Source of the DNA: an uncultured Syntrophaceae bacterium
GTDB lineage: Bacteria; Desulfobacterota; Syntrophia; Syntrophales; UBA2210
Assembly (NCBI GenBank): GCA_964610735.1
Contig: CAZSYH010000002.1
Coordinates: 12,933-76,932, forward strand
Length of the DNA: 64,000 nt
Reading direction: 5' to 3'
Part shown: piece after piece, positions 3,265 through 56,107 of the stretch
How the letters are laid out: each line of letters begins with the position of its first letter
Position numbering within the stretch: the stretch's first letter is position 1
Translations under genes and position numbers: made by a program
The notes under the pieces: generated by a model
Database searches by the model: none
The model's input: only the letters and a program-made list of their open reading frames with translations
What the model was told of the DNA's origin: nothing

Positions 3265-3268
3265 TATT

Positions 3269-3820: not shown

Positions 3821-3832
3821 GAGGACTACACC

Positions 3833-12196: not shown

Positions 12197-12430
12197 TGAA
12201 ACGGGGCCCTTCCTTCCTGAACTTTTCCATTGACGCCTGCGTATAAATAATCCATATTGGCACGCTTGAGAACGGCACCAATCATGATGCACCTGTAAAA
12301 CTATGGGAAAAGGGGGCTTCCCCTGTTTGATTTCCAGTCGGGCCCGGAGCTCCTCTGCGATAGACTTTCGGCGTTTCCTGTTTTTCAAGGCATTACCAAA
12401 ACTTTTTTACTGATCCCAACTTGACTAAAA

Positions 12431-22229: not shown

Positions 22230-22907
22230 GTGAACCGGTTACAAATGGAAAAATTAAAAGACATAATCTCCACAACCTCTGGGGATATCGGTATAAATCT
22301 CACCACTCGTGAGATAGATCTCCTCGTTGAATATTACAAAGAACTGTTGCTCTGGAATAAAAAGATGTCCCTTGTCTCAATAAAATCTCCTCTTGACATA
22401 CCAAAACACTTCATCGATTCTCTGACAGTCACAAAATTTATAAAAAATGAGACCTCAAAACTGTTGGATGTAGGAACAGGAGCCGGTTTGCCCGGTATTC
22501 CGTTGAAGATAAAAATGGAGGCACTCAGTGTCACCCTCCTTGATTCATCACGCAAAAAGACATCTTTCCTCAAAAGTGTCATCCGCAAGCTCGATCTCAA
22601 GGACATCTCAGTCATAAATGGCAGGGCGGAATCGTTAGTACATGAAAAAGGATACAAGGGGGGGTTTGATATCGTCATATCCAGGGCTGCCTTCAAAATC
22701 CCTGATTTTCTCACATTGGGAGCACAATTTTTGTCTGACGGCGGCACCCTGATAGCCATGAAGGGGAAAAATGCAGATGACGAGCTTGAACGGGCGGCTG
22801 GCACAATCAAGAAAACGAGTCTTGCATTGACATGCGTCCATGAAATAAGACTTCCGGTCACAGGCGAATTAAGAAAAATTCTCTGTTTTCATAAGAACCT
22901 GTTATAG
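22230..22907 (+). CDS. rsmG: 16S rRNA (guanine527-N7)-methyltransferase RsmG (GidB)
   Basis: SAM motif LDVGTGAGLPGIPLKI, SRKKTSFL and RAESL motifs. Alternative ATG start at 22245. Confidence 0.88.
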   Translation: MNRLQMEKLKDIISTTSGDIGINLTTREIDLLVEYYKELLLWNKKMSLVSIKSPLDIPKHFIDSLTVTKFIKNETSKLLDVGTGAGLPGIPLKIKMEALSVTLLDSSRKKTSFLKSVIRKLDLKDISVINGRAESLVHEKGYKGGFDIVISRAAFKIPDFLTLGAQFLSDGGTLIAMKGKNADDELERAAGTIKKTSLALTCVHEIRLPVTGELRKILCFHKNLL

Positions 22908-23013: not shown

Positions 23014-23784
23014 ATGAGAAAAGTCATATGCATAGCCAACCAGAAGGGGGGCGTCGGCAAAACAACGACTGCTATCAATCTGTCCGCTTCCCTGGCCGCC
23101 GCGGAAAGGAAAACTCTTCTGATAGATTGTGATCCTCAAGGAAACGCCACAAGCGGTGTTGGCATAGACCCCTCCACAATAAACGAGAAAAATCTTTACT
23201 ACGCCCTTATTCAAGACGCTCCATTTGAAGAAATCGTATTCAAGACACAAATTCCCACTCTCGACATTATCCCCTCTAATCAGGATCTTATCGGTGTGGA
23301 GATAGAGTTCGTATCACTAAGTAACAGGGAAAAGAGGTTGAAAAACTTTCTAAAAAAAATTGACTTTTCTTATGAATTTATTATAATCGACTGTCCACCT
23401 TCTCTTGGTTTTTTAACTGTTAATTCTCTTGTTGCATCCGATTTACTCATAATTCCTCTGCAATGCGAGTACTTTGCACTGGAAGGATTGGGCCACCTGT
23501 TAAACAGCGTTAAACTTGTACAGGCAAGACTCAATCCATCCCTGTCATTGGCCGGCATACTGCTTACCATGTTCGACAAAAGAAATCGGCTTTCCCACCA
23601 GGTAGCCGACGAAGCCAGGAAGTTTTTTGGGTCTAACGTATTAAAAACAGTTATACCAAGAAATGTGAGGCTTTCCGAAAGCCCAAGCCATGGATTGCCT
23701 ATTATACTGTACGATATAAAATCCAGCGGTGCCATTTCATACATGGCGTTGGCAACGGAGATTATGACCAACGGAAGGATATGA
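23014..23784 (+). CDS. parA: Chromosome partitioning ATPase ParA/Soj
   Basis: Deviant Walker A NQKGGVGKTTTAINL, IIIDCPPSLG, and the RNVRLSESPSHG motif. Confidence 0.93.
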   Translation: MRKVICIANQKGGVGKTTTAINLSASLAAAERKTLLIDCDPQGNATSGVGIDPSTINEKNLYYALIQDAPFEEIVFKTQIPTLDIIPSNQDLIGVEIEFVSLSNREKRLKNFLKKIDFSYEFIIIDCPPSLGFLTVNSLVASDLLIIPLQCEYFALEGLGHLLNSVKLVQARLNPSLSLAGILLTMFDKRNRLSHQVADEARKFFGSNVLKTVIPRNVRLSESPSHGLPIILYDIKSSGAISYMALATEIMTNGRI

Positions 23785-24644
23785 TGCCTAAAAAAAACGC
23801 ATTGGGAAAGGGGCTGGGTGCCATATTCACCGACCTTATGGAGGACCCTTCTGACAAACCAAACTTCGCAATGTGCGGAATCGAGGAATTGTCACCAAAC
23901 AGATTCCAGCCAAGGAAGATATTTGACGGGAAAGAGCAAAAAAACCTTGTAACGTCCATCAAAAAAAACGGTATATTGCAACCAATTGTTGTGAGAAAAG
24001 CTGAGTCGGGCTATGAAATTATCGCTGGAGAACGCAGATGGAGAGCAGCTCAGACCGCAGGATTAATGAATGTACCGATCATTATCAGGCATAATGCTAA
24101 AGATATCGACGTAGCAGAGCTGTCTCTCGTGGAAAATATACAGCGCGAGGGGCTGAACCCCATAGAAGAATCGGAGGCATACCAAACCCTCACTAAAACA
24201 TTTCGCCTCTCCCAAGACGAAATATCATCTCGGGTGGGTAAAGATCGGTCAACCATAGCAAATTCCCTTCGGCTGCTTAATCTTCCGGGAGAAGCAAGGG
24301 ATGCGCTGATAAAAAAAGATATTTCCGCCGGACACGCGAGAGCCATCCTGTCGGTTGATTCGCGGGAAAAACAGATTGTTCTGTTAATGGAAGTCATAAA
24401 GAAAAAACTCAGCGTCAGGGAAACTGAAAAGCTGGCAAAATCTATTGATACTCACCTTAAAAAGAAAAAAAAGGTGGGAAAAGATACATACATTATAGAC
24501 CTTGAGAATAAAATGTCGGAAAGATTGATGGCAAGGACAGGCGTAAAACAATTGAGTAATGGTGGTGTTATAGAAATTAGATTCTCATCCTCAGATGATC
24601 TGGAGAGGTTGGTGGATATTATCATGAGTGGAGATGATAAGTAA
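23781..24644 (+). CDS. parB: Chromosome partitioning protein ParB/Spo0J
   Basis: ParB box QPIVVRK..YEIIAGERRWRAA, HTH SQDEISSRVGKDRSTIANSLRLL. Start overlaps the parA stop (ATGA). Confidence 0.93.
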   Translation: MMPKKNALGKGLGAIFTDLMEDPSDKPNFAMCGIEELSPNRFQPRKIFDGKEQKNLVTSIKKNGILQPIVVRKAESGYEIIAGERRWRAAQTAGLMNVPIIIRHNAKDIDVAELSLVENIQREGLNPIEESEAYQTLTKTFRLSQDEISSRVGKDRSTIANSLRLLNLPGEARDALIKKDISAGHARAILSVDSREKQIVLLMEVIKKKLSVRETEKLAKSIDTHLKKKKKVGKDTYIIDLENKMSERLMARTGVKQLSNGGVIEIRFSSSDDLERLVDIIMSGDDK

Positions 24645-26206: not shown

Positions 26207-29738
<3,532 letters not shown>

Positions 29739-29967: not shown

Positions 29968-32448
29968 ATGGATCAGTTGTTCCAGAAGAACATACCGGTA
30001 ACGATAGAAGCTGAGATGAAGAAGTCCTACATGGAATACGCGATGAGCGTGATTGTAGGACGCGCCATTCCCGATATCAGGGACGGATTAAAGCCGGTTC
30101 ACAGAAGAGCACTATTTGCCATGTCTGAGCTTGGAAACCGGTGGAACAAGCCCTATAAGAAGTCCGCGAGGATAGTGGGTGATATTATCGGCAAGTATCA
30201 TCCACATGGTGACACGGCTGCGTATGATACCGTCGTCAGGATGGCGCAGGATTTCTCCATGCGGTATCCGCTCATTGACGGCCAGGGGAACTTCGGATCT
30301 GTTGATGGAGACCCGCCCGCTGCCATGCGTTATACAGAGGTCAGGATGGAGAAGATGGCGGAGGAGCTTCTTTCGGATCTTGATAAGGATACCGTTGATT
30401 TTATTCCGAACTACGACGGCTCTCTTCAGGAACCGGTGGTGCTGCCCGCCAGGATTCCGACCCTCCTTCTCAACGGGTCGTCGGGAATAGCAGTTGGTTT
30501 GACAACCAATGTCCCCCCTCATAATCTTACCGAACTTGTCGATGGAATAATCGAGCTTATACATAATCCGGAACTTTCGGTTGACGATCTCATGGTATTC
30601 ATCAAGGGCCCCGACTTTCCGACGGCCGGCTTTATCAACGGCCGAGACGGAATCGTCTCCGCCTACCGTACGGGGCGCGGTATCATCAGAATCAGAGCGC
30701 GTGCAATCATCGAGCGAAACGCCAGAAACGACAGAGAGAGCATCATCATTACGGAACTTCCCTACCAGGTAAACAAGGCACATCTGATAGAAAAGATATC
30801 AGATCTGGTAAAAGACAAGAAGATCAGTGGTATAGCCGACCTGAGAGACGAATCGGACCGGGAAGGGATGAGGGTCGTTATCGATCTCAAACGGGAAGAA
30901 ATGTCGGGGGTTATTCTCAACCAGCTGTATAAGCACACCCAGATGGAATCGACGTTCGGCATCATCATGCTGGCCATTGACCGGGGACAGCCCCGGCTGA
31001 TGAACCTCAAAGAAATATTGGTTAAGTTTATTGATTTCAGGAAAGAAATTGTTATCAGAAGGACGATGTTTGAACTGGCCCGCGCCAGGGAGAAGCTGCA
31101 TATCTTGGAGGGGCTCATTATCGCCCTCGACAATATTGATGAGGTCATTGCCGTTATCAAGGCGTCCGAAAACGCGAAGACGGCAGCCGAAGAGCTGATG
31201 GCGCGATTCGGCCTGAGCGAGGAACAGACCAAGGCCATTCTGGAGATGAGGTTGCAGAGGCTGACCGGTCTGGAACGCGACAAGATACGGGAGGAACATA
31301 TCGAGATATCAGCCCTTGTTAAGAAACTGGAGGGCATACTTGCGGATTCCCAGAAGGTACTCGATATCATTATAGCGGAGCTGGAGGATATACTGAAACG
31401 GTACGGGGATGCGAGGAGAACGGAAATCGTCCTGAGCAGTACCGATATCGGGATTGAGGATATGATTGTGGAGGAGGATATGGTGGTTACCATATCGCAC
31501 CAGAACTACATCAAGAGAAATCCGGCCAGTCTGTACAGGAGCCAGCACCGTGGAGGGCGCGGCAAAGTCGGTATGGGTACAAAAGAGGACGATTTTCTTG
31601 AGAGATTGTTTATAGCCTCGACACACAGTCATATCCTGTTTTTCACCAATATGGGGCGCGTATACTGGCTGAAGATATACCAGATTCCTCAGGCTGGAAG
31701 AGCTGCGAAGGGCAAGGCGATCGTAAATCTCATAGGAATATCAAAAGATGAGAAGATTACGGCGGTTCTTCCTGTAAAGGAGTTTGTTGAGGATAAATTT
31801 GTTATAATGGCGACCAAGCGGGGAATTATCAAAAAGACGGACCTCATTGCCTATTCCAATCCCCGCTCCGGCGGCATCATTGCGTTGACCCTCGACGAAG
31901 GGGATGAACTGATTGATGTCAAACAGACGAACGGCGACCAGGACATCTTCCTCGGTGCCAGGAAGGGCAACGCGATCCGATTCAACGAGAAAAATGTTCG
32001 TGCCATAGGCAGAACGGCCCGCGGTGTAACCGGGATTAGAATAGCAGCCGATGATGAAGTGGTTGGCATGGAAGTGTTGAGTGACAGCAATTCCATCCTG
32101 ACCGTTTCAGAAAATGGATTTGGCAAGAGAACGGAGATTTCGGAATATCGGCTTCAGTCACGAGGTGGAAAGGGCATTATTAATCTCAAGACCACACCAA
32201 GAATAGGTTTCGTGACACGAATAAAGCAGGTCACCGGCGATGAGGACATTATGCTAATCAGCAGTACGGGAAACATCATACGGCTTGGTGTTGATGAAGT
32301 TTCACTCCTGCACCGCAGTACCCAAGGAGTCAAGCTGATAGATCTGGGCGATGAAGAGACGCTTGTGGGATTGGCAAGAGTGGAACGTGAAGAGCCCGAT
32401 ATGGACGAGGACTTGCTCGGTGAGGAGTCGGAGACGTTTGATTTTTGA
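29968..32448 (+). CDS. gyrA: DNA gyrase subunit A
   Basis: [24 protein letters not shown], the QRDR region [14 protein letters not shown], the active-site Tyr context AMRYTEVR, and an acidic C-terminal tail; 826 aa. Confidence 0.96.
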
Positions 32449-32896: not shown

Positions 32897-33340
32897 ATGA
32901 ATAAAGATAAAGTTCAAGCGATCTTCTCGCCTTACAGTATATTTGATCATACGGCCGACTTGGGAGTGGAGATATATGGAATAGATGAGCGGGATCTCTT
33001 TCGCAATGCCGCAGTTGCCCTTTTTGATATAATGACGGACGTAAGCCTTGTACATGCAAGAGGAGAATGGGAAGTTTTTGCTGAAGGGAGGGATTTAGAG
33101 GAACTTCTGGTAAACTTCCTCAGAGAGATATTGTATATGTACAGCGGTGAGGGATTGTTGCTGAAAGAATTTGTTATTTCCGAGATGGACAATTTTCACT
33201 TAAAGGGAACAGCAAGGGGGGAACCTTTTGTACATAAAAGGCACTGTATGAGTGCCGAGGTAAAGGCAGTTACATACCACGGGACAGAGATACACAGAGC
33301 TGGGGGAGTGTGGACCGGGAGGATTATCCTTGATGTCTGA
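32897..33340 (+). CDS. Archease (RtcB activator)
   Basis: FDHTADLGVEIYG N-terminal motif and C-terminal VKAVTYHG pattern; 147 aa. Overlaps the rtcB start by 11 nt. Confidence 0.85.
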   Translation: MNKDKVQAIFSPYSIFDHTADLGVEIYGIDERDLFRNAAVALFDIMTDVSLVHARGEWEVFAEGRDLEELLVNFLREILYMYSGEGLLLKEFVISEMDNFHLKGTARGEPFVHKRHCMSAEVKAVTYHGTEIHRAGGVWTGRIILDV

Positions 33341-34778
33341 TATCAAGATAGAACGGCTTGATGCCTTCCGCTGGATCATACCCCCTACGGGTGGCATGCG
33401 TGTACCCGGGATTATCTATGCCGATGAGCGGATGATGAAAACGATGGGCACGGATGAAAGCCTCAAACAGGTCGCCAATGTGGCGCACCTGCCGGGGATC
33501 ATCGGCCATTCACTGGCGATGCCCGATATCCACTGGGGATATGGATTCCCCATCGGCGGTGTCGCGGCTTTCGATATGGAAGAGGGGATTATCTCTCCCG
33601 GAGGGGTGGGATATGACATCAATTGCGGTGTTCGCCTGATGGCGACTAATCTCCAGTTTGGTGAAATCAAAAACAGGGTGAAAGATCTTGTTATCGCTCT
33701 CTTCAAGAACATACCTGCCGGTGTGGGCTCCGAAAGTGCCCTTAGGCTTTCGATGGATGAAGAAAAAAAGGTGTTACGCCAGGGAGCCGCGTGGGCGATT
33801 AACCGTGGCTATGGCTCCGACGACGATCTTGCCAAGACCGAAGATGGCGGCGCGATGCAGGGGGCGGACCCCTCCTGTGTAAGTGAACGGGCCCTCGAGC
33901 GAGGGCGCAGACAGCTGGGGACCCTGGGTTCCGGGAACCATTTTTTGGAGATAGAGGTTGTGGATAAGATCTTTGACAGAAAAATTGCCTCCACATTCGG
34001 ACTGGTGGCCGAGGGACAGGTTGCCGTCGCCATTCACACCGGGTCACGGGGTTTCGGATATCAGGTGTGCGACGACTATCTCGCGCGAATGGTCAAGCAC
34101 AGCAGCGCTCTGGACTTTTCCCTCCCCGACCGGCAGCTGGCCTGTGCGTATCTTACCTCTGATGAGGGTAAGAAATATATGACTGCCATGGCCTGTGCCG
34201 CGAACTATGCCTGGGCGAACAGGCAGATGTTGATGCACTGGACGGCACAGACCTTTGAGAAAACCCTGCAACGCTCTCCACGCGACATAGGGATGAGGCT
34301 TGTTTACGATGTGTGTCACAATATCGCAAAGGTGGAAGAATTTGAGATAGCGGGCAGGGAAAAAAGCTTATGCGTACACCGCAAGGGGGCCACGAGAGCG
34401 TTGCCTCCACAGCACCCAGCCCTGCCGGACGTGTATCGCGAGGTGGGCCAGCCGGTACTGATACCTGGGGACATGGGGACAGGATCTTATGTGCTAGCGG
34501 GGACAGACAAGGCCCTAGAGGAGACCTTCGGCAGTACCTGCCATGGCGCTGGGCGTATAATGAGTCGCGGCAGGGCGATGAAGGAGAGCGGGAGCAGATC
34601 AATAGCAAAAGAGATGGCCGACAGGGGTATTGTGGTTATGGCTGCTGGCAAAAAGACAATTCGGGAGGAGATGCCCGACGCGTATAAGGACATAGAAGAC
34701 GTGGTGAACATTGTCCATCTGGCCGGCCTGTCCACAAAGGTCGCGCGGCTCAGGGCAGTTGGCTGTATCAAGGGATGA
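33330..34778 (+). CDS. rtcB: RNA-splicing ligase RtcB (3'-phosphate/5'-hydroxyl RNA ligase)
   Basis: MPDIHWGYGFPIGG, GGVGYDINCGVRL, LGSGNHF, HTGSRGFG, and STCHGAGR motifs; 482 aa. Confidence 0.93.
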   Translation: MMSDIKIERLDAFRWIIPPTGGMRVPGIIYADERMMKTMGTDESLKQVANVAHLPGIIGHSLAMPDIHWGYGFPIGGVAAFDMEEGIISPGGVGYDINCGVRLMATNLQFGEIKNRVKDLVIALFKNIPAGVGSESALRLSMDEEKKVLRQGAAWAINRGYGSDDDLAKTEDGGAMQGADPSCVSERALERGRRQLGTLGSGNHFLEIEVVDKIFDRKIASTFGLVAEGQVAVAIHTGSRGFGYQVCDDYLARMVKHSSALDFSLPDRQLACAYLTSDEGKKYMTAMACAANYAWANRQMLMHWTAQTFEKTLQRSPRDIGMRLVYDVCHNIAKVEEFEIAGREKSLCVHRKGATRALPPQHPALPDVYREVGQPVLIPGDMGTGSYVLAGTDKALEETFGSTCHGAGRIMSRGRAMKESGSRSIAKEMADRGIVVMAAGKKTIREEMPDAYKDIEDVVNIVHLAGLSTKVARLRAVGCIKG

Positions 34779-34988: not shown

Positions 34989-35954
34989 GTGCCTGATATA
35001 AATATACCGAAGGACACCTATGATATTGTTATAGTGGGGGGCGGCCCCGGAGGACTGGCTGCGGGGATGTATGCGGCTAGGGCTGACATGAAAGTATTGC
35101 TGCTGGAGGGAAATGCCCAGGCCAGCCAGATAACCATGACGGATATGATAGAAAATTACCCCGGCATATCTGAGATCAGCGGGTTTGAACTTAATGATAG
35201 GTTTAAAAAGCAGGCGGTTTCATTTGGTTTGGAGACCAGACCGGAACAGGTAGACCGCATAAACCGAAACCAATCAGGAGACATTGAAGGATGGGAGGTT
35301 ATTACCGATAACGATGCCTACCGGACTCTTTCCGTCATTGTTTCTACGGGAGCGGCTTGGAGTAGCTTGGGAGTGCCGGGGGAGCACAAGTTTATCGGCA
35401 GAGGAATATCATACTGCGCCACCTGTGATGCCCCCTTTTACAGAGACAGGGAAGTTGTCGTGATTGGAGGCGGAGATACCGCTATCCAGGAAGCCCTCTA
35501 TTTGACGAAATTTGCCTCGAAGGTTACAGTCATTCACAGAAGAGACCGCCTGCGCGCGACGGCCATACTTCAGCAGCGGGCCTTTGCCAACGAAAAAATC
35601 ACATTTGCCTGGGATTCCACCGTGGAGGAGATCCTGGGAGAGGATGGTGTAACAGGGGTAAGAATAAAGAATGTCAAAGCGCCTGACAGGTATGAAGAAA
35701 TTTCTGCCGACGGCGTTTTTATCTTTGTCGGTCTTGTGCCGAATACGGCCTTTATCAAGGGAATTGTCGATCTGGATAAGGGGGGATATATTATTACAGA
35801 CAGCGATATGAGCACATCGGCTGGAGGCGTCTTCGCATGTGGAGATTGCATCAGCAAATCCCTGAGACAGGTGGTAACCGCCTGCGGCGATGGGGCGACG
35901 GCCACGCACAGCGCCTCGCTGTATGTTGATGAATTAAGGGGACAGGCATACTGA
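34989..35954 (+). CDS. trxB: Thioredoxin-disulfide reductase
   Basis: FAD motif VIVGGGPGG, redox-active CATCD, NADPH motif VVVIGGGDTA, and GVFACGD; GTG start. Confidence 0.9.
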   Translation: MPDINIPKDTYDIVIVGGGPGGLAAGMYAARADMKVLLLEGNAQASQITMTDMIENYPGISEISGFELNDRFKKQAVSFGLETRPEQVDRINRNQSGDIEGWEVITDNDAYRTLSVIVSTGAAWSSLGVPGEHKFIGRGISYCATCDAPFYRDREVVVIGGGDTAIQEALYLTKFASKVTVIHRRDRLRATAILQQRAFANEKITFAWDSTVEEILGEDGVTGVRIKNVKAPDRYEEISADGVFIFVGLVPNTAFIKGIVDLDKGGYIITDSDMSTSAGGVFACGDCISKSLRQVVTACGDGATATHSASLYVDELRGQAY

Positions 35955-36256: not shown

Positions 36257-37108
36257 ATGGGGGCAATGATCCAAACAGTCAATTTCTGGCAGCATATTCC
36301 TGAGCATATCAATCCGGCGTTTCTGGAGATAGGTTCCTTTCAGCTTCGTTACTATGGGCTTATGTACCTTGTCGCTTTCTTCATCGTCTATCTGCTCGTT
36401 ATCCACAGAATAAAGGATGAAGGTATCGACTGGTCGAAGGAAACTATCCAGGACTATTTTGTATGGGCAATAGCAGGACTTTTGATAGGGTCGCGGCTGG
36501 GATATGTCCTCTTCTATAATCTTGAATACTATGCGGCGCACCCCCTTTACATTATATTTCCCTTTGACACCTCCGCCGGTTTCCGGTTTATCGGGATCAG
36601 CGGTATGTCATATCATGGAGGGCTTGCGGGTATTGTCCTTGCGTCTGTCTGGTTTTGCCGGAGGCGCGTGATAAATTTCTGGCAGTTTGCGGATCTTTTC
36701 TGTCCCGCGGTACCGCTCGGGTATACATTCGGCAGGATAGGAAACTTCCTGAACGGTGAGCTTTACGGCCGAGTAACCGATGCATGGTGGGGCATGTATT
36801 TCCCTCTGGACCCGCTTTTTCGCCTTCGTCACCCATCTCAGCTTTATGAAGCCTTTTTTGAAGGCCTATTTCTCTTTGCGCTCCTGTGGAGTGTCAGGAA
36901 AAAAGGCTGGTTTGACGGATCTTTGTTGAGCCTGTATCTTGTCGGTTATGGGATTGTGCGGTTTTGTATTGAATTTTTCAGACAGCCGGATTCCCAGGTG
37001 GGCCTATTTATGGGAATGCTCAGCATGGGGCAGCTACTCTGCCTCGCGATGATTATTTTTGGTGTTGTTGTTATGCTCGTAAAAAAACAACAGGGAGAAA
37101 GCGAATGA
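36257..37108 (+). CDS. lgt: Phosphatidylglycerol:prolipoprotein diacylglyceryl transferase
   Basis: YYGLMYLVAF, SYHGGLAG, FGRIGNFLNGELYGR, HPSQLYE motifs and multiple TM helices. Confidence 0.92.
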   Translation: MGAMIQTVNFWQHIPEHINPAFLEIGSFQLRYYGLMYLVAFFIVYLLVIHRIKDEGIDWSKETIQDYFVWAIAGLLIGSRLGYVLFYNLEYYAAHPLYIIFPFDTSAGFRFIGISGMSYHGGLAGIVLASVWFCRRRVINFWQFADLFCPAVPLGYTFGRIGNFLNGELYGRVTDAWWGMYFPLDPLFRLRHPSQLYEAFFEGLFLFALLWSVRKKGWFDGSLLSLYLVGYGIVRFCIEFFRQPDSQVGLFMGMLSMGQLLCLAMIIFGVVVMLVKKQQGESE

Positions 37109-38439
37109 ACAGAAAGCTGATAGTAATCGGGGGCGGCGCCGGGGGACCTTCTGCAGCCGCGGAGGCAAAGAGGAGAGATCCATCCCTGGATGTAACAATG
37201 TTGGAAAAGGGTGAGTTTGTTTCATATGCCGCCTGACCCATGCCTTATTACATCGGTGATGTAATCAAAGATTCGGGAAACCTTATCGCGAGAACCCCAG
37301 AAAAGTTTGAAGAAACCGGGGTAAGCGTGGAGCTTAACACCTGCGTCGAAGGCATCGAGACCGACAGGGGGGAAGTCCTGCTGGCAAGTGGCAGAAAGCT
37401 GTCATATGATACGCTTGTTATAGGAACAGGTGCCGAAGCAACTCTACCTGACATACCGGGCACGACACGGGACGGGGTATTCACGCTGAAAAATCTGCGG
37501 GACGGCATCAACATCAAGGAATATATAAAGCGTAACAGGTGTCGCAGGGCGGTAATAGTCGGGGCCGGTTTTATCGCCATGGAGATGAGCGAGGCCCTGA
37601 GAACTCTTAGCCTTGAGACCAGCGTCGTATACAGGGGCGAGCTTCCTGTCAAAAAATGGGATCCGGTATTTTCCGGGGTGGTTCTGGAGGAGCTTGTAAA
37701 CAACGGAGTATCCTTTATCGCCCACAACTCTCCTGTTGCTGTTGAGAAGGGCTCAGATGCCCGACTGTGTCTGGTTACCGATAAAGGAAAGATAGAGACC
37801 GACATTATCGTATTCGCCCTCGGTGTGAGACCTGAGACGAAGCTGGCGCGTGAAGCAGGCCTTGAGACGGGAGAATCCGGCGCCATCCAGGTGGATTCTT
37901 CGCAACGCACCTCACGAGAGGAAATATTTGCCGTTGGCGATTGCTGTGAGTCATATCACCGGTTGAGCAAGAAATGGGTGAATATTCCACTGGGAGATAT
38001 AGCGAACAAACAAGGACGGGTAGCCGGCCGTAATATTGCCGGATATCCTATGATATTCCCCGGGATTGTAGGCGCCCAATCCTTTAAGGTGTTTGGCTTG
38101 GAAGTTGCCATGACCGGTCTTGATGAGAAGACGGCGGAAAAGAGCGGATATTCGCCCGCAGGCAGCATAATCTGGGGGAACCCTGTGGCGCGTTCCATGA
38201 GTGGGGGTCAGAGACTGGGGCTCAAACTGATCGCGGACAGGGGTTCGGGAAAATTGCTGGGGGCGCAGGCAGTAGGACAAAGCGGAGCGGTCAGCCGCAT
38301 CAACATTCTGTCCGCGTGTCTGTGGTCCGGCATGGGGCTTGACGAAATAGGCTATATGGATCTCGCCTACAGTCCGCCCTTTGGCGGGGCGTGGGATGTG
38401 ATTCATACCGCGGCCCAGGTCCTGGGGAAAAAGCTGTGA
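37105..38439 (+). CDS. CoA-disulfide reductase / NADH oxidase-family flavoprotein with in-frame TGA (probable selenocysteine) at the redox-active Cys position
   Basis: ATG 37105 (ATGA overlap with the lgt stop) reads MNRKLIVIGGGAGGPSAAAE..LEKGEFVSYAA-TGA(37234-37236)-PMPYYIGDVIKD, in the same frame as ORF 37240..38439. The full length would be 444 aa, typical for the family. A second Rossmann motif (VIVGAGFIAME) and GDC are present. Confidence 0.8.
37247..37265 (+). other. Candidate bacterial SECIS hairpin
   Basis: Perfect 8-bp stem ATTACATC/GATGTAAT with a GGU apical loop, starting 10 nt after the UGA. The loop centre is ~21 nt from the UGA. Confidence 0.55.
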
Positions 38440-45588: not shown

Positions 45589-47403
45589 ATGAAAAGATTG
45601 ATTGATTTGTCAAAGGAAGAACTTCTCGAAAGGATATGGGAGACGGAGCCCAAACTCAAGGATATTCTTAGCAATGCCAGACATGTGGAAGAAGCACGGT
45701 ATGTTTTTTTTGATTACCTTGATCGTTTCGGAAGAGACCTGTACAACATGAAAGCCGATACACCCTTTGCGGATTTGAATGTTGTAGAGAGGAGAAATGC
45801 CAGGGAATGTATCCGGGTGCTCGCAAATACAATGCGGACAGAAAACGAACATCTGACACAGACTTCGCCGCTGGCACTTTTGTATAATCTTGCAAATGAT
45901 GAGGAGGGAGCCCTTGAGAAGGTAAGCGCGGGTTTTTTGATGGAATACGTTGCCCTGCTGGAGGGTATCAGAGGAAAATATGGAAAACATTCCCAACACC
46001 ACGAGCTTCTGGAGCAAAAAGAGGGAAGAGGCGCCGCTATTGAGCGGTCTTCCCAGTTGGATGATTACGGAGCGATGATAAGAAGATATTTCAAAAGATA
46101 TAAAACAGGGCTGGATCCCAGACTGGTAAAAAAGAGAAAGAAACTGAAAGATAGGATACTGGATTATTTCGGGGCCGGAGAAGAAGACTGGGGGAATTAT
46201 CTCTGGCATATGAAACACATCATCAAAGACATCGAGACACTGTCTGCTCTTGTCAAGCTGGATGATGATGAAATGGAAGGGTTAAGACTGGCGACGGAAA
46301 ATCTTATTCCTTTTGAAATAACGCCTCATTACCTGTCGCTTTTTAATGAAGACGGAATGACTTTACATGATCGCGCCATTCGCGCGCAGGTTATCCAGAG
46401 CCCCCGGTATTGTACCAATGTCCTCGCAAATCAGGGGGAGGGAAGAGACATGGATTTTATGGGGGAGCATGCGACGAGTCCGATAGATGGAGTCACGCGC
46501 AGGTATCCTCAGATTATTATTATGAAACCGTTCAATTCATGCCCGCAGATATGCGTTTATTGCCAGAGAAACTGGGAGATAAAGGACATTGACGACAGCC
46601 CTATGATGTCCAGGGACAAGGTAGAAGAAATGATAAACTGGGCCAGAGAGGATAAAAACCTCTCAGAGATTCTGATAACCGGTGGAGATCCCTTGACACT
46701 CAACAACAAGTACCTTGACTGGATGATCGGAGAAGTCGCGGCAATAGATCATGTAGACAGGATAAGAATCGGAACCAGAACGCTTGTAACCCTGCCCCAG
46801 AGGATAAATGACGGTCTGCTTGAGATCCTTGGGAAATACCACGAGTGGGGGAAAAGAGAGATTACCATTGTTACACATGTCGAGCACCCCACCGAAATAT
46901 GTCCGGAAGTCCTGGATGCCGTGAAAAAGATAAAAAAGCTGGGAATTAATATCTATAACCAGCAGGTTTTCACCTATTACAACAGCAAAAAATTTGAAAC
47001 GGCCTTCCTGCGGAAAACGCTTAAGGTTTGCGGTATCGATCCTTACTATACCTTCAACTGTCAGGGTAAGGGAGAAACCGTGGATTTCAGGGTTCCCATA
47101 TCAAGGATATTGCAGGAAAATAAGGAAGAGGCAAGGCTCATGCCCGGTCTTGTCAGGACGGATGAGCCAGTCTTCAACGTGCCGAGATTGGGGAAATCAC
47201 ACTTGAGGGCGTGGCAGGACCATGAAGTCATCATGATCCTGCCCGATGGCCGGAGGGTATACAGATTCTATTCATGGGAGACAAAACTTACAACAGCCAG
47301 AGACTATCTCTATACGGATGTGTCCGTTTACGATTATTTTAAAAGACTGCAGGAAGATGGTGAGAATGTTAATGATTATCTCTCCATGCTGTATTATTTT
47401 TAG
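45589..47403 (+). CDS. KamA-family radical SAM aminomutase with ~200-aa N-terminal extension
   Basis: KamA core from ~aa 200: WGNYLWHMKH, FEITPHYLSLF, TRRYPQIIIMKP, radical-SAM CPQICVYCQR (C318/C322/C325), ITGGDPL, YYTFNCQG, and a candidate PLP lysine in NVPRLGKS; 604 aa. Confidence 0.8.
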   Translation: MKRLIDLSKEELLERIWETEPKLKDILSNARHVEEARYVFFDYLDRFGRDLYNMKADTPFADLNVVERRNARECIRVLANTMRTENEHLTQTSPLALLYNLANDEEGALEKVSAGFLMEYVALLEGIRGKYGKHSQHHELLEQKEGRGAAIERSSQLDDYGAMIRRYFKRYKTGLDPRLVKKRKKLKDRILDYFGAGEEDWGNYLWHMKHIIKDIETLSALVKLDDDEMEGLRLATENLIPFEITPHYLSLFNEDGMTLHDRAIRAQVIQSPRYCTNVLANQGEGRDMDFMGEHATSPIDGVTRRYPQIIIMKPFNSCPQICVYCQRNWEIKDIDDSPMMSRDKVEEMINWAREDKNLSEILITGGDPLTLNNKYLDWMIGEVAAIDHVDRIRIGTRTLVTLPQRINDGLLEILGKYHEWGKREITIVTHVEHPTEICPEVLDAVKKIKKLGINIYNQQVFTYYNSKKFETAFLRKTLKVCGIDPYYTFNCQGKGETVDFRVPISRILQENKEEARLMPGLVRTDEPVFNVPRLGKSHLRAWQDHEVIMILPDGRRVYRFYSWETKLTTARDYLYTDVSVYDYFKRLQEDGENVNDYLSMLYYF

Positions 47404-48275
47404 ATGTGTTCCCCTCCGGCTTGTGGCGTGGACAACCGGAGATGTTCTTTTCCAAGTTCTTTGTATAGGCTTTCCCCTATCTTCAGACCGAGGGCGATGA
47501 AGTCGGGACCGTACTCCCTGCCGGTGGATGTGCGGAAAGTATCGCTGATCTTTTCCAGAGTTTTTAATCCGGAGGGAAAATGATCTAATAAAATTTCGAT
47601 GGAGATATCCAGGGTGTCTGATATATCCCATATCATTTCCGTGAAATTATCGGGACCCCACCGGAACTTGTCGGCGTCGTACAGGGCATCGGACAGAAGT
47701 TGAGCGTCCGGGTCGGAAAGGGGGGCGCATGGTTGAAAGGCCTCGTGATTTCCTATCGCGGCGACCACAGACACTTGTTCTTTGTCTGTAAGGTCAAAGC
47801 CCCTGAGGATCTTCCTCGCCTCTTCCGCCCCACGCCGGGCGTGATTTTTGTCTGATCGTTTTATATCATGCAGAATGCCGGCTATATGTGCCAGAACAAC
47901 GGCGCGCTTTACGTTGCCCGCTTTTATCGCATCCTGCCCTTCGATGAGCATTATGGCCCCCACGTCTATCGCAACCTTTCGTGCATGAGACAATCCATGG
48001 CCGGAGGAGTCTGCCCTCGCGGTTATTATCTCAATACACGCTGTGACCATCGGATTATTTTCAAGCAGACGGAGAGACTCGCTGATTTCAATCTTTTTTT
48101 CCCGGTAAAAACGAGGAGCGGCAAATGTGACCGCGATTTTTTCAGACAGTATTTTCGCATCTGAAAGCGTTTGGGTGATCATGGGATTTTGTTTTATTCC
48201 CCTGGAAACGATTATGTGTCCATCATTTTTTTGAGTTTCCTGTGAACAACAGCGGAAATACGATGTCACTGACAC
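47400..48275 (-). CDS. HD-domain protein
   Basis: GLSHARKV...AGILHDIKR HD signature. The ORF-track start at 48275 overlaps the upstream gene by 53 nt, so the internal ATG at 48182 (MITQTLSD) is an alternative start. Confidence 0.7.
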   Translation of the reverse strand: MSVTSYFRCCSQETQKNDGHIIVSRGIKQNPMITQTLSDAKILSEKIAVTFAAPRFYREKKIEISESLRLLENNPMVTACIEIITARADSSGHGLSHARKVAIDVGAIMLIEGQDAIKAGNVKRAVVLAHIAGILHDIKRSDKNHARRGAEEARKILRGFDLTDKEQVSVVAAIGNHEAFQPCAPLSDPDAQLLSDALYDADKFRWGPDNFTEMIWDISDTLDISIEILLDHFPSGLKTLEKISDTFRTSTGREYGPDFIALGLKIGESLYKELGKEHLRLSTPQAGGEHI

Positions 48276-48837
48276 AACAGGGTATCAGGACGGCAATAAA
48301 CAGGAACATGAAGACGACAATGTACGACAGCCAGTTTAATGTACCCCCCACGGCCATGATAATATGAAAGATTGAGGCCCAGGTGCTCAGGAGGACGTGT
48401 CCCGCATGGGGAAACTTTGTTGACGGCCGGAAGTAGGCTACGGCTATTCCCAGTATCGCCAGGGGATTTACCAGCCACCACTTTTCGATAAAGCCGATGT
48501 GAAGGCCCCTGTCGGGCATGTTGAGCATAACTTCGCCAAGATAGGGTATCAGGGAATCACTTATAGTGGCAATGCCTATAGAGCCTGCATAACCTATAAC
48601 CAGCAGAATCCAGATATTGCATTTACCTCCGACCTCTCCGCATTTGTGAAGTTTGTACATGGATGTCGTGACCAGGGCGCTCAAAACAACGTGTAGAGGA
48701 TGGAGGACATAGAAAATATTCAGAGCGGTTGTGTGTGGTATATGCTGAAAGAGAACCATAATTACTATACCGGTAGCTGCACCGAGGAGAGTAAAAGGGG
48801 CGTGATTTTTTAATTCTCTTAGTATTTGTACGGTCAT
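48223..48837 (-). CDS. Integral membrane protein with duplicated His-rich TM motif, function unknown
   Basis: About six hydrophobic helices. Repeated motif HPLHVVLSALV (N-half) and HAGHVLLSTWA (C-half). Confidence 0.55.
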   Translation of the reverse strand: MTVQILRELKNHAPFTLLGAATGIVIMVLFQHIPHTTALNIFYVLHPLHVVLSALVTTSMYKLHKCGEVGGKCNIWILLVIGYAGSIGIATISDSLIPYLGEVMLNMPDRGLHIGFIEKWWLVNPLAILGIAVAYFRPSTKFPHAGHVLLSTWASIFHIIMAVGGTLNWLSYIVVFMFLFIAVLIPCCVSDIVFPLLFTGNSKK

Positions 48838-49102: not shown

Positions 49103-49660
49103 TTATCCTGCCGCCTTTGATGAACAATTTTCAGCCATTTTGATGCCAAGGTCGAGGGCATCCTGGTTAATCTGTAAAAAAGCGGAAGGAATCCTGGTCT
49201 CCAATACCTTCATGATAGACTCTGGCCTGACTATTTTTAAAAAGGTAATCAGGGCGCCGAGCATGCATATGTTGAAGACAATTGGCTTCCCGATTTTATC
49301 CATAACCTCTGTGTACATATTAAGTTCTATCTGCTTTGCGTCAACTTTTTCATTCTGTTTGACATAATGTCTGTCGGTCAGGAGAAAACCTCCCGGTCGA
49401 ATAAGCCCGGAGAATTTATCGTATGCTTCCTGAGTAAGACACACTAAAATGTTTGGTTCAATAACCTTGGGAAACAATATATCCGTATCGGAAATGATAA
49501 CATCTGAACGACTTGCGCCACCTCTGGCTTCAGGGCCGTATGACTGGGATTGAACTGCATTCAACCCTTCACAAAGGAGAGCCGCCTCAGCCAGTATTAT
49601 GGCCGCTGTAATCACACCCTGTCCGCCTGAACCGGAGAGGATAATTCTACGTCTTTCCAT
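49103..49660 (-). CDS. 2-oxoacid:ferredoxin oxidoreductase gamma subunit
   Basis: N-terminus IILSGSGGQGVITAA and SYGPEARGG motifs; 185 aa. Confidence 0.88.
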   Translation of the reverse strand: MERRRIILSGSGGQGVITAAIILAEAALLCEGLNAVQSQSYGPEARGGASRSDVIISDTDILFPKVIEPNILVCLTQEAYDKFSGLIRPGGFLLTDRHYVKQNEKVDAKQIELNMYTEVMDKIGKPIVFNICMLGALITFLKIVRPESIMKVLETRIPSAFLQINQDALDLGIKMAENCSSKAAG

Positions 49661-49663
49661 AAT

Positions 49664-50467
49664 TTACCTTCCCTTAGACGCCCTTTCTATGACCTTGTCA
49701 TATTCAGCACAGTATTCTGGCCGTTCTTCCTGGACAAATATACCTCGTTCTATGAGATCGGGATTTTTCTCCTTTTCCTTGCTCCCTATGGGAGTTGTAT
49801 TGGTTTTATAACTATTGAGCATATCCACTGCACTGGGGATCTTGTTTCTTCGGCCAAACTGTATTGGGCACTGAGACAAAACTTCTACAACCGAAAACCC
49901 TTTATGCGTGATGGCCTTCTCCAATATCTTTACCATTGGATTGACATGATAGGTTGTCGTCCTGGCAACAAAGGAGGCCCCAGCGCCGGTTGCGAGCTTA
50001 ACCACATCAAAGGAATGATCTATATTCCCATAGGGCGCGGTCGTTGCAAATTCTCCGTATCCCGTCAAAGGAGAGTATTGACCTCCTGTCATACCATAGA
50101 TGCTGTTGTTCATGATAATGGCAGTTACATCGATATTGCGCCTCGCCGCATGGATAAAATGGTTACCGCCAATAGCACAGGCATCACCGTCCCCCATGGG
50201 GACCAGTACGGTAAGCTCCGACCTGCTCAGTTTGACACCGGTGGCAAAGGCAAGGGCCCGGCCGTGGAGTGTATGCAGGGTATGAAAATCAAGGTAGCCA
50301 CTGATACGGGCAGAACATCCAATACCCGAAACCGCAGCGATATGCTTTTTTTCCAGACCGAGGTTTTCAATCGCACGGATAATGGCAGTCATTACAGTGC
50401 CATGGCCGCAACCTGGGCACCAAATATGAGGGAAAAATCTCTTTCTGATATAGTCTTTAACTGCCAT
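49664..50467 (-). CDS. 2-oxoacid:ferredoxin oxidoreductase beta subunit (TPP-binding)
   Basis: WCPGCGHG, GIGCS, GDGD..IGGNH, and NNSIYGMTGGQ motifs. Confidence 0.9.
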   Translation of the reverse strand: MAVKDYIRKRFFPHIWCPGCGHGTVMTAIIRAIENLGLEKKHIAAVSGIGCSARISGYLDFHTLHTLHGRALAFATGVKLSRSELTVLVPMGDGDACAIGGNHFIHAARRNIDVTAIIMNNSIYGMTGGQYSPLTGYGEFATTAPYGNIDHSFDVVKLATGAGASFVARTTTYHVNPMVKILEKAITHKGFSVVEVLSQCPIQFGRRNKIPSAVDMLNSYKTNTTPIGSKEKEKNPDLIERGIFVQEERPEYCAEYDKVIERASKGR

Positions 50468-50470
50468 TTC

Positions 50471-51619
50471 TTACACCCCCTTTCCCTGGGTGATTCTTAT
50501 GATACTCAAGACATCGGTAGGCGTAATAAATCCACCGTCAATCCTGTTGGCAAGAAAAACTCCGTCAGGATTCTTGACCGCCTTCTTTACCTCACCAAGT
50601 ATCTGGCCCATATTCATTTCTACCACAATTATCTGATTCGCAGAGGCACATCGCTCCCTGACAAGTTTAGCAGGGAAGGGCCAGAGAGTCTGTAGCTCCA
50701 ATAACCCGAGTTTTTCACCCCGCTCTCTCCTGTTTTTTACAATGTGAAGGGCCGTTCTGGCGGCGGATCCATAAGAAATCAGGAGGCATTCCGCATCATC
50801 AACAAAGAACTCCTTTATCCTTGTGATTTCATTTACGTGGGTCTCAATCTTGTCTACCAGATGGTGCATCAATCCATATACAACACCCGGCTTGTTTGAA
50901 GGAAACCCCCACATATCATGCGCCAGCCCTGTGACATTATGCCGGTGATCACCTCCAAAATCAGACATGGGAAGGCGGCCATCCTCCCTTGGCAGATACG
51001 GGTGATAATCAGTTCCTGCTGGCACGGACGTTTTCAGTCTCTCTACCACGTCGATTTCCCCTGCCTTCGGCTCCACAAGCCTTTCCCTTGTATGTCCAAC
51101 AACTTCATCAAGAAGCAAAATAACAGGTGTCCTGAAGGTTTCCGCCAGATTAAAGGCATCAACCGTTATTGCAAAAACATCTTGACTGTTGGATGCGGTT
51201 AAAACGATAATGGCATGGTCTCCATGGGTTCCCCAGCGTGCCTGCATGACATCTCCCTGACTTCCACTCGTAGGAAGACCTGTCGAAGGGCCACCCCTCT
51301 GAACATCAACGATCACACATGGGGTTTCAGTCATTACAGCAAAACCGAGAGCTTCCTGCTTCAAGGAAAAACCCGGGCCCGAGGTTGCGGTCATAACCTT
51401 TTTCCCAGTGAGTGAGGCGCCGACTATGGCACACATGGAGGAAATCTCGTCCTCCATCTGAATAAATTTCCCCCTCTTCTCGGGCAAACGAAGCGAGAGC
51501 AGCTCCGCAATTTCTGTGGAAGGAGTTATCGGGTAACCGGCAAAAAACTCAAGCCCGGCATAAAGAGCCCCCCTTACACAAGCTTCATTACCTTGAACAA
51601 ACACGACATCTTTCTTCAC
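50471..51619 (-). CDS. 2-oxoacid:ferredoxin oxidoreductase alpha subunit
   Basis: QGNEACVRGAL, YPITPSTEI, TATSGPGFSL motifs. GTG start 8 nt after AAGGAGG. Confidence 0.9.
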   Translation of the reverse strand: MKKDVVFVQGNEACVRGALYAGLEFFAGYPITPSTEIAELLSLRLPEKRGKFIQMEDEISSMCAIVGASLTGKKVMTATSGPGFSLKQEALGFAVMTETPCVIVDVQRGGPSTGLPTSGSQGDVMQARWGTHGDHAIIVLTASNSQDVFAITVDAFNLAETFRTPVILLLDEVVGHTRERLVEPKAGEIDVVERLKTSVPAGTDYHPYLPREDGRLPMSDFGGDHRHNVTGLAHDMWGFPSNKPGVVYGLMHHLVDKIETHVNEITRIKEFFVDDAECLLISYGSAARTALHIVKNRRERGEKLGLLELQTLWPFPAKLVRERCASANQIIVVEMNMGQILGEVKKAVKNPDGVFLANRIDGGFITPTDVLSIIRITQGKGV

Positions 51620-53977: not shown

Positions 53978-56107
53978 ATGTCAGAACATCCGGATACAAA
54001 AAAATGGAGAGAACTTGCGGAAAAGAGTTTAAAAGGTAAATCGCTTGAATCCCTGAACTGGATCACCCCGGAGGGAATCCGGATAAAACCCTTGTACACA
54101 GCCGAAGATCTTGAAGGCCTGGAGTTTGTCAACACTCTTCCGGGACTTGCCCCCTATATCAGGGGGCCTCATGCTACCATGTATGTCCAGAGACCGTGGA
54201 CAATCCGCCAGTATGCCGGTTTTTCCACGGCAAAAGAATCGAATAAATTTTACAGAAGCAACCTTGCCGCCGGACAAAGGGGCCTTTCGGTGGCCTTTGA
54301 TCTTGCGACTCACAGGGGCTATGACTCTGATCACCCCAGGGTGGTTGGCGATATCGGAAAGGCTGGCGTCGCGATAGATTCCGTGGAGGACATGAAGGTT
54401 CTTTTCGATCAGATTCCTCTGGACAAGATGTCTGTTTCCATGACCATGAACGGAGCTGTTCTTCCCTGTCTCGCGGGGTATATCGTTGCCGCGGAAGAGC
54501 AGGGGGTTACTCAGGACAAACTTTCGGGGACCATACAGAACGACATCCTCAAAGAGTATCTCACGAGGAATACGTACATATACCCTCCGGGTCCTTCCAT
54601 GAGGATCGTCTCGGATATTATCGGGTACTGCTCGAAGAATATGCCCCGGTACAATACCGTCAGCATCAGCGGATACCACATCATGGAGGCCGGGGCGAGC
54701 TCTGTACTCCAGGCCGCTTTTACCCTGGCTGATGGGGTTCAGTACGTGCATGCCGCCCTTGACGCGGGACTTGACATAGACGCGTTTGCGCCGCGGCTCT
54801 CATTTTTTTTCGGGATCGGGATGAATTTTTTCATGGAAATTGCCATGTTGAGGGCCGCCCGTTTTCTCTGGCATGAGCTAATCAGCAAGTTCAACCCTCA
54901 AAACCCGAAGTCCGCCATACTCAGAACCCACTGTCAGACATCCGGCTGGAGTCTGACGGAGCAGGACCCATATAATAATATCATACGAGTCACCATTGAA
55001 TGTATGGCCGCGGTTCTGGGCGGGACCCAGTCTCTCCATACCAATTCATTCGATGAGGCTGTGGCCACACCTTCGAATTTTTCCGCCAGGCTCGCGAGAA
55101 ACACCCAGATCATTGTTCAGGAAGAATCCCAAATCTGTCACGTTATTGATCCGATGGGCGGTTCCTATTATGTCGAGGTTCTGACCGATGGGATTATCCG
55201 GGAGGCAAGGAAAATTATTAATGAGGTCGAAGATCTGGGCGGCATGGCAAAGGCCATCGAAACCGGAATGCCGAAGATGCGAATAGAGGAATCGGCCGCT
55301 AGAAAGCAGGCCCGAATAGACCAGGGGCTGGATGTGATTTTGGGTGTGAACAAGTATCAGATAGAGGAAGAGCCCCTTGGTGATATTCGTGAAGTATCGG
55401 AGGCTGTTCGGGATGAGCAGGTTGCGAGATTAAAAGAGCTTAAGGCAAAACGAAACCCCGCCGCTGTGCGTAAGTCCCTGGAGGCCTTAACGAACTGTGC
55501 TGAATCGGGGGGGAATCTTCTGGAAGTGGCAATATCCGCCACACGGGCCAGGGCAACGGTTGGAGAAATTTCAAATGCCATAGAGAAAGTCTTTGGACGA
55601 TATACAGCGACAACCCGGTGTATATCCGGAGCCTATGCCTCTGAATACACGGACAGTGAAATATTCGCCGCTGTAAAAAAAAGAACAAGTGATTTTATGG
55701 AGAGGGAAGGCAGACGGCCACGGATGCTTGTTGTCAAGATGGGCCAGGATGGTCATGACCGCGGGAGCAAAGTGATCGCTACGGCCTACGCGGATCTTGG
55801 GTTTGACGTGGATATCGGTCCCATGTTCCAGACTCCCGATGAGGCGGCCAGGATGGCTGTAGAAAACGATGTTCATGTCGTCGGTGTCTCAAGTCTGGCT
55901 GCCGGTCACAAGACCCTTATCCCCCAGCTTTTAGAAAGCCTCAAGGAAGAGGGCGGGAAAGATATCAAGGTAGTTGCCGGCGGGGTAATTCCCCATAGCG
56001 ATTATGATTTCCTCTATGATGCCGGAGTGGCAGCGGTATTTGGTCCTGGGACACCCATTCTTGATTCCGCAAACCGGACTCTCGACATCCTGGAGCAGAA
56101 AACATGA
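53978..56107 (+). CDS. Methylmalonyl-CoA mutase, large subunit with C-terminal B12-binding domain
   Basis: [39 protein letters not shown], and C-terminal [12 protein letters not shown] (DxHxxG B12 motif); 709 aa. Confidence 0.93.

Follow-up and report, generated by a model that had tools for sequence, protein, structure and literature searches.

The discovery of selenocysteine (Sec)-containing members of the NADH oxidase/coenzyme A (CoA)-disulfide reductase family is reportedly credited in reviews to their reference 12, presumably the 2004 work of Kryukov and Gladyshev. The "NADH oxidase/CoA-disulfide reductase" selenoprotein family is catalogued in the literature (PMC1794560; PMC9312934; PMC13188914), with a Sec "NADH oxidase" listed from Geobacter metallireducens (PMC1794560; prototype WP_011365774.1) and one Sec member from the Olavius delta1 symbiont (PMC1976440). 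In surveys the Sec form counts as rare, with a single sequence as of 2006. Here we analyze a gene at positions 37105-38439 of a 64-kb stretch of contig CAZSYH010000002.1 from an uncultured Syntrophaceae bacterium (the window, meaning the whole stretch at its full length). A preliminary description made from the letters of the window had proposed that this gene encodes a selenoprotein with UGA at a catalytic cysteine position, followed by a hairpin resembling a Sec insertion sequence (SECIS), and had suggested that Sec forms of NADH-oxidase-like proteins were already described; this suggestion is correct (PMC1794560; PMC1976440; PMC9312934; PMC13188914). We estimate at about 0.9 the probability that the gene truly encodes Sec and that its SECIS is functional, both selenium incorporation and SelB binding being predicted. 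Because the family is already catalogued, the gene represents a mis-annotated new member and not a new kind of system. What is new is in the detail: a large Syntrophales clade in which Sec predominates, a U-P-x-P motif, a minimal and sequence-invariant SECIS, and uniform splitting of the gene by public annotation.

The reading frame opens at an ATG that overlaps the stop of the upstream open reading frame (ORF) as ATGA, which is seen directly in the sequence. It runs through 43 sense codons (MNRKLIVIGGGAGGPSAAAEAKRRDPSLDVTMLEKGEFVSYAA), reaches an in-frame TGA and goes on as PMPYYIGDVIKD... in the frame of the ORF starting at 37240. This structure had been proposed in the preliminary description, and every coordinate held on re-checking. 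The same gene ends in an ordinary TGA stop (38437-38439), and there is no hairpin there. When the internal TGA is read as a sense codon, the product matches Pyr_redox_2 (PF07992, 3e-55, 188 bits), Pyr_redox (PF00070, 3e-17, 63 bits) and Pyr_redox_dim (PF02852, 3e-11, 44 bits), all above their gathering scores. The domain order is that of an N-terminal flavin adenine dinucleotide (FAD) fold, an NAD(P)H Rossmann domain, in which G153 and G155 are invariant, and a C-terminal dimerisation domain. Together with top NCBIfam matches to CoA-disulfide reductase models, the three Pyr_redox domains support the earlier assignment to the flavoproteins of the CoA-disulfide reductase (CoADR), NADH oxidase (Nox) and NADH peroxidase (Npx) type. 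The segment 37105-38439 is thus very probably a single gene for a homodimeric FAD/NAD(P)H flavoprotein of 444 residues, belonging to the single-cysteine CoADR/Nox/Npx group and predicted to have Sec44 as its sole redox-active residue.

The position of the TGA within the protein is well defined. Solved homologues, namely 6RUZ, 6PFZ, 5L1N/4FX9, NADH peroxidase and the Staphylococcus aureus CoADR, could be aligned end to end, with 6RUZ covering residues 1-438 at 2e-89. The TGA falls on the catalytic Cys of 6RUZ, 6PFZ and 5L1N (VSYGAC-GLPY, VSLGRC-GLPY and VSHAPC-GIPY, respectively), and it aligns with Cys42 of Npx (1JOA) and Cys43 of S. aureus CoADR (1YQZ), for which the reference sequences used were exact matches to 1JOA_A and 1YQZ_A. 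It also corresponds to Cys in full-length orthologues with identical flanks (VSYAA-C/U-PMPYYIGD). The active-site block reads S40-Y-A-A-U44-P-M-P-Y48, with S40 and Y48 invariant in 86 clade sequences, and it has the single redox-active Cys position of the S-[FY]-x-x-C-x-x-P-Y block without a CxxxxC disulfide. The placement of UGA at the catalytic cysteine, as first proposed, therefore stands in every alignment made.

Scanning one genome per species gave the 80 loci closest to the Sec-form query, all from metagenome-assembled genomes (MAGs) assigned to Syntrophales, Syntrophaceae, Smithellaceae or "Deltaproteobacteria". The homologous codon is TGA in 73 of them and TGC or TGT in the other seven; as these are the loci most similar to a Sec-form query, the ratio describes its near neighbourhood and not the whole family. 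Including the window, the Sec forms comprise 74 distinct sequences. The set of Cys forms (n = 14) includes the seven from the genome scan, three found with a degenerate DNA pattern on metagenome contigs and four obtained by look-ups, so that the codon is TGA in 73 genomes and TGC or TGT in 14 cases in all. In every one of the 74 Sec forms the TGA is preceded, at a distance of exactly 43 codons, by a start codon, and the GxGxxG motif is intact, even though pairwise identity among them goes down to 50% (median 59%). A coding signature is seen both before and after the TGA, and neither segment is decayed; upstream, mean entropy is 0.58 bits for the first, 0.33 for the second and 1.61 for the third codon position.

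A protein search gives the pattern typical of selenoproteins. Among close relatives (64-100% identity), almost all entries are proteins of 398-405 residues that cover 90% of the query and begin with MPYYIGD or MTYYIGD. Most of the farther relatives (55-68%) are full-length, 443-448 residues, and read ...VSYAACPMPYYIGDVIKD...; Cys-form orthologues include P0033, P0047 and P0076. A protein search with the N-terminus alone for deposited full-length forms containing U yielded seven fragments only and was uninformative.

Immediately downstream of the TGA lies the perfect 8-bp hairpin noted in the preliminary description, composed of ATTACATC (37247-37254), the loop GGT (37255-37257) and GATGTAAT (37258-37265), with all pairs Watson-Crick. 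Ten nucleotides separate the UGA from the stem, and the loop starts 21 nt from the U of UGA (18 nt intervening). The 64-kb window contains 16 perfect 8-bp hairpins with loops of 3-9 nt. By chance, any one TGA would thus have about 0.0055 of them at a suitable distance, a figure that falls to 0.0027 when the first two loop positions must contain a G, and the hairpin is therefore more than a coincidence. For a bacterial SECIS (bSECIS), the published model sets the apical loop at 3-9 nt, the upper stem at 4-16 bp and the distance from UGA to loop at 16-37 nt, with G in the first two loop positions (N1-G-[G|U]-N-N2) and an energy of -7.5 kcal/mol or lower (PMC13188914). The element has a 3-nt loop, an 8-bp stem, 18 nt between UGA and loop, and the sequence C-G-G-U-G when the closing pair is included, all of which agree with the model.

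Conservation of the hairpin at the nucleotide level is extreme among the Sec forms. All stem nucleotides are fixed in the 74 sequences with the sole exception of A37250, which is G in three loci, where the A-U pair becomes G-U and Tyr is replaced by Cys. Five third-codon sites within the stem (37248, 37251, 37254, 37260 and 37263) have zero entropy, compared with 0.8-2.0 bits at all other third-codon sites between -45 and +75. Both loop Gs are invariant (74/74) and the third loop base is free to vary (T in 45, C in 24, A in 3 and G in 2). The RNAalifold consensus of the Sec forms consists of the 8-bp stem and 3-nt loop and nothing more, and the 19-mer core occurs at no other site in 1.4 Mb of window and related-locus DNA. 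A fully paired stem is present in all 74 Sec forms and in 5 of 14 Cys forms (Fisher 3.5e-9), and the identical core in 71 of 74 versus 2 of 14 (Fisher 1.9e-10). The YYIGDVI peptide encoded by the element is altered in three of the 74 Sec forms versus five of the 14 Cys forms. Selection acting on the nucleotides only where the codon is TGA, in addition to the fit to published bSECIS geometry, supports the proposal that the hairpin acts as a SECIS.

Several observations weigh against this interpretation. Searches of the 64-kb window by tblastn with Escherichia coli SelA, SelB and SelD found no selA, selB or selD, and ARAGORN detected no tRNA in the window, nor any tRNA-Sec in 1.4 Mb of related loci. 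Rfam searches, covering the whole window at the gathering threshold and the surroundings of the element at E <= 10, returned no SECIS or tRNA-Sec family and only two chance matches. The hairpin is AU-rich and weak. Although the 25-nt hairpin alone has a z-score of -3.3, its energy of -5.7 kcal/mol, or -6.4 kcal/mol in 42 nt, lies above the -7.5 kcal/mol limit, for which the published model may use a window length and energy parameters different from those applied here; in 42 nt, 64 orthologues out of 74 reach that value. Folded within 42 nt and 60 nt of sequence (z = -0.95 and -0.07), the element does no better than shuffled sequences, and the 60-nt fold attains -10.6 kcal/mol only by adding an unrelated second hairpin. 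Both Fisher tests ignore kinship among the sequences. With respect to the enzyme itself, the best NCBIfam matches are CoADR equivalogs that all score under their cut-offs (NF007123, 380.7 < 458; TIGR03385, 372.8 < 578.8; also NF010037, 218.7 < 394), followed by the H2O-forming NADH oxidase NF046103, also under cut-off (213 < 600). Tyr361' and Tyr419' are active-site tyrosines of S. aureus-type CoADR, and the first of these is not conserved here, its position being taken by Ser or Met.

There is nevertheless evidence of Sec machinery in the lineage. When tblastn was run over all related loci, the sole match was a selA gene on locus L031 (631-2070, minus strand; TIGR00474, 623 bits versus a cut-off of 268), from an uncultured Syntrophaceae MAG. 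The distance from this selA to a Sec-form orthologue downstream on the same contig is about 8 kb, and selB would be expected just past the fetched end of that locus. In the literature searched, Syntrophus aciditrophicus is credited with 19 selenoproteins and Syntrophobacter fumaroxidans with 31-39. These findings provide good, albeit indirect, support for reading the UGA as Sec.

Every annotation pipeline calls two genes at this locus, a 43-aa ORF ending at TGA 37234 and a 399-aa oxidoreductase starting at ATG 37240, which in the window lies 3 nt past the TGA; on this account the hairpin would be incidental. However, the 399-aa product would have neither the FAD-binding fold nor the catalytic residue, the 43 upstream codons are kept as protein in 74 genomes, and the Cys-form orthologues are continuous proteins of 443-448 aa. 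An internal Met start had been named beforehand as an outcome that would refute the Sec proposal. It is excluded in 17 of the 74 Sec forms, which have no Met for at least 55 residues past the TGA, so that internal initiation is impossible there, and we regard two separate genes as highly improbable. It could also be argued that the TGA arose by nonsense mutation, leaving a pseudogene, or through faulty sequencing or assembly, leaving an artefact, and a lone in-frame stop in metagenome-derived sequence is often an error a priori. Against this, the identical gene is found in eight independent assemblies (ENA, JGI and Logan), with TGA and hairpin in all of them, which rules out an assembly error. 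The same TGA is seen in 73 other species-level genomes, the flanking sequence is intact, and the adjacent hairpin is selectively maintained. Conservation across genomes thus effectively refutes this explanation, and we find it barely credible.

Somewhat harder to dismiss, although still improbable, is that the UGA is read without Sec, by near-cognate Trp or Cys insertion or through a lineage-specific reassignment, with the hairpin as a generic stimulator of read-through or pausing. The lack of Sec genes in the window, the small and thermodynamically weak hairpin and the leaky UGA-C context would all be compatible with it. Nevertheless, more long ORFs of the window end in TGA (24 of 59) than in either other stop codon, and this gene is itself terminated by TGA; UGA has therefore not been reassigned across the genome. 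Recoding affects precisely the redox Cys, a hallmark of Sec/Cys pairs, and loop G-G, spacing and stem length fit the bSECIS model; in addition, selA occurs on a related contig together with a Sec form, and the protein belongs to an accepted selenoprotein family. Finally, the hairpin might be kept solely through the YYIGDVI peptide and local codon bias, with no function as RNA, given that the heptapeptide is also kept in most Cys forms and that several of these retain much of the stem. Yet the adjacent Tyr codons are frozen in different forms, TAT then TAC, each as pairing demands, and therefore codon bias is not the cause. All 74 Sec forms encode Val as GTA and Asp as GAT, although synonymous positions are variable elsewhere and in the loop. 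Where Cys forms keep the same peptide, the codons GTC, GTG, GAC and TAT appear, and these disrupt or weaken the stem. We consider this explanation very unlikely, and Sec insertion directed by the hairpin remains our favored reading.

Regarding the function of the putative selenoenzyme, the residue at the position of Npx/Nox His10 is Ala in 84 of 86 clade sequences, as in CoADR, and the position of Npx Arg303 is occupied by Asn in all 86. Y422, the equivalent of S. aureus CoADR Tyr419', is invariant (86/86). These features place the protein in the single-Cys group, leaning toward CoADR and away from peroxidase and oxidase. Judging from its residues and family scores, the protein does not appear to be an equivalog of any characterised enzyme, and its substrate is more likely CoA disulfide, a persulfide or a polysulfide than peroxide or O2. 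Directly after the FAD-binding GD motif there is a Cys doublet, C280-C281, in "GDCCE" (37942-37947). C280 is invariant (86/86) and C281 is present in 72 of 86 clade sequences, and the corresponding site reads GDIA in S. aureus CoADR and GDAT in Npx. It is possible that the doublet serves as a second redox or resolving thiol.

A mechanism can be proposed on this basis. The hairpin, with its 8-bp stem and G-G-N loop, would recruit SelB carrying GTP and Sec-tRNA(Sec) to a ribosome paused at the UGA, and Sec would be inserted instead of chain termination taking place. UGA followed by C is a weak terminator, a context that would favor Sec insertion. In the enzyme, NAD(P)H would reduce FAD, and the reduced FAD would in turn reduce a selenenyl-sulfide (Se-S-CoA or similar) or a selenenic acid on Sec44.

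The distribution of Sec and Cys forms is informative about the history of the clade. Cys forms are interspersed with Sec forms: for five of them the nearest neighbour is a Sec form, and there are two small Cys-only groups. Two TGC forms carry the intact and unaltered hairpin (L062, 10130-10165; L090, 568-602, minus strand), and other Cys forms hold a degraded one. Remnant SECIS elements after Sec-to-Cys conversion have been described (PMC1794560), and the hairpins of these two loci look like such remnants of a recent conversion. The scattered Cys forms, the remnant hairpins and a SECIS frozen across deep divergence together suggest that Sec may have been ancestral in the clade and lost several times. 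A broader proposition can be put forward tentatively, and we hold it to be somewhat less probable than its negation: that in Syntrophales the Sec form is ancestral and dominant, instead of being an occasional branch of a Cys family, and depends on an unusually small, frozen 19-nt SECIS below the usual energy threshold, with an AU-rich 8-bp stem and a GGN triloop, which constrains YYIGDVI and has been lost by repeated, independent Sec-to-Cys reversion with remnant hairpins left behind. If true, this would constitute a natural minimal SECIS and a clean system for the study of SelB recognition and Sec/Cys exchange. It would also explain why energy-thresholded SECIS predictors and the Prokaryotic Genome Annotation Pipeline (PGAP) miss the whole clade.

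The genes surrounding the selenoprotein gene offer some additional clues (Table 1). Upstream, the order is trxB, a gene for an FmdB-type zinc ribbon, lgt and then the selenoprotein gene. Lgt is found upstream, on the same strand and within 4 kb, in 55 of 84 related loci, and TrxB upstream in 46 of 84; the arrangement also occurs with Cys forms. Its recurrence fits, though weakly, with a function in thiol redox. Downstream of the selenoprotein gene, a gene resembling ADP-forming acetate-CoA ligase is encoded on the opposite strand and points towards it; a TAXI-TRAP transporter follows.

Table 1. Coordinates of the features discussed (window positions unless a related locus is named).
Feature	Coordinates	Strand	Evidence or remarks
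Predicted complete selenoprotein coding sequence	37105..38439	+	444 codons, Sec at codon 44, TGA stop 38437-38439; translation, Pfam, PDB 6RUZ
True start codon ATG	37105..37107	+	Sequence; start codon 43 codons before TGA in 74/74 Sec forms
FAD-binding GxGxxG motif (GGGAGG, residues 9-14)	37129..37146	+	Upstream of UGA; kept in 74 Sec forms
UGA, predicted Sec residue 44, catalytic Cys position	37234..37236	+	Structure alignments; TGA/TGY orthologues
Putative SECIS core, 8-bp stem and GGU apical loop	37247..37265	+	Within codons for Y-Y-I-G-D-V-I
399-aa ORF of gene finders (P0001, "FAD-dependent oxidoreductase")	37240..38439	+	ORF calls
NAD(P)H-binding Rossmann motif GAGFIA (residues 153-158)	37561..37578	+	PF00070 over residues 148-220
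Dimerisation domain Pyr_redox_dim (residues 326-429), includes Y422	38080..38391	+	Pfam, alignment
TAC to TGC (Tyr49 to Cys) in 5' arm, Sec forms	L053 ~1081-1140; L067 ~10130-10190; L078 ~7760-7820		Pairing kept, otherwise invariant peptide changed
lgt (prolipoprotein diacylglyceryl transferase)	36257..37108	+	PF01790; stop overlaps start of the selenoprotein gene
trxB (thioredoxin-disulfide reductase)	34989..35954	+	TIGR01292, 369.8 bits vs cut-off 343.45
rsmG/gidB	22230-22907		
parA	23014-23784		
parB	23781-24644		
dnaA	24735-26057		
dnaN	26207-27316		
gyrB	27327-29738		
gyrA	29968-32448		
archease	~32897-33340		
rtcB	33330-34778		

Other features of the window were recorded along the way. 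The segment 22230-34778 is the neighbourhood of the chromosomal replication origin. In another assembly of the same organism (L085, 3139-4584), rtcB is called as 93 aa plus 366 aa and not as 481 aa; this split could be a frameshift, an assembly variant or another recoding event. When the window was scanned for further genes with an in-frame TGA, a single plausible candidate emerged (TGA 12422, within 12299-14386); it was rejected as a selenoprotein, the TGA belonging to the spacer before an ABC-F ATPase, whose 651-aa ORF starts at ATG 12431 and leaves the 41 codons upstream outside the protein. Two adjacent ORFs (291 and 204 aa; 47400-48837, minus strand) downstream of a radical-SAM gene had no Pfam match at E <= 1e-5. 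Syntroph-type metabolism is represented at 49103-51619 (minus strand) and 53978-57087 (plus strand) by a three-subunit 2-oxoacid:ferredoxin oxidoreductase and by a methylmalonyl-CoA mutase fused to a B12-binding domain together with a MeaB GTPase. A thiolase and an acyl-CoA dehydrogenase encoded at 2077-4981 are likewise typical of syntrophs. A 743-aa bacterial dynamin-family protein (PF00350, 5.8e-14) is encoded at 5633-7864 (minus strand).

The consequences for annotation are direct. As anticipated in the preliminary description, gene callers lose the N-terminus, and every public assembly shows a 43-aa orphan followed by the 399-aa ORF, deposited for example as the 399-aa "FAD-dependent oxidoreductase" MBW2557812.1. 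The mis-annotation may be due to the fact that no dedicated NCBIfam selenoprotein model is found among the matches to the 444-residue product. Public annotation thus splits this gene and at least 73 Syntrophales orthologues, leaving a 399-aa fragment devoid of cofactor site and catalytic residue, with the result that metabolic reconstructions of syntrophs and selenoproteome counts are wrong. The clade adds a large and coherent group to a selenoprotein family that has been treated as rare. It is also a very clean case of an RNA element that constrains the synonymous sites, and even the amino acids, of its own coding segment, and it illustrates repeated Sec/Cys interconversion with remnant SECIS hairpins.

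It is instructive to compare the locus with known systems. The closest solved homologues are the NADH oxidase of Thermus thermophilus (6RUZ), NoxA-3 of Archaeoglobus (6PFZ) and the CoADR of Pyrococcus horikoshii (4FX9/5L1N), at 2e-89 to 1e-75. They share with the protein described here the GxGxxG motif, the VS-x-x-x-C-x-x-PY block and the AY-x-PPF motif at the C-terminus. All of them have Cys where Sec is predicted here, and their activities on O2, CoA disulfide or polysulfide are not simply transferable. The S. aureus CoADR (1YQZ) and Npx (1JOA) have the single-Cys mechanism in common with it, Sec44 being equivalent to Cys43 of the former and Cys42 of the latter. CoADR resembles the clade more closely in having Ala at the Npx His10 position and Tyr419', the counterpart of Y422. 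Nevertheless, identity to these two enzymes is 29-30%, Tyr361', His10 and Arg303 are not kept, and C280 is an additional Cys of the clade.

As in the bSECIS consensus, of which E. coli fdhF is the archetype, the element is part of the coding sequence and directly follows the UGA on its 3' side. It differs in being very short and AU-rich, in having no lower stem or bulge in its conserved part, and in being sequence-invariant, with no covariation beyond one change of A-U to G-U. Animal thioredoxin reductase, the most familiar pyridine-nucleotide-disulfide oxidoreductase with Sec, belongs to the same flavoprotein superfamily and also employs Sec in redox catalysis. Its Sec is part of a GCUG extension at the C-terminus and works together with a CxxxxC disulfide near the N-terminus, and its SECIS is in the 3' untranslated region. 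In the protein described here, by contrast, Sec would take the place of the single active-site Cys, which is N-terminal and adjoins the flavin, and the SECIS is intragenic. The Geobacter prototype comes nearest, as it belongs to the same family (COG0446/TIGR03385-like), likewise originates from anaerobic "Deltaproteobacteria" and, judging by its tabulated "UGxP" motif, has Sec at the single redox-active Cys. Compared by tabulated description only, the motif is U-G-x-P there versus U-P-M-P here. The clade described here belongs to Syntrophales, and the Sec form, rare in surveys, is the majority among its closest 80 genomes.

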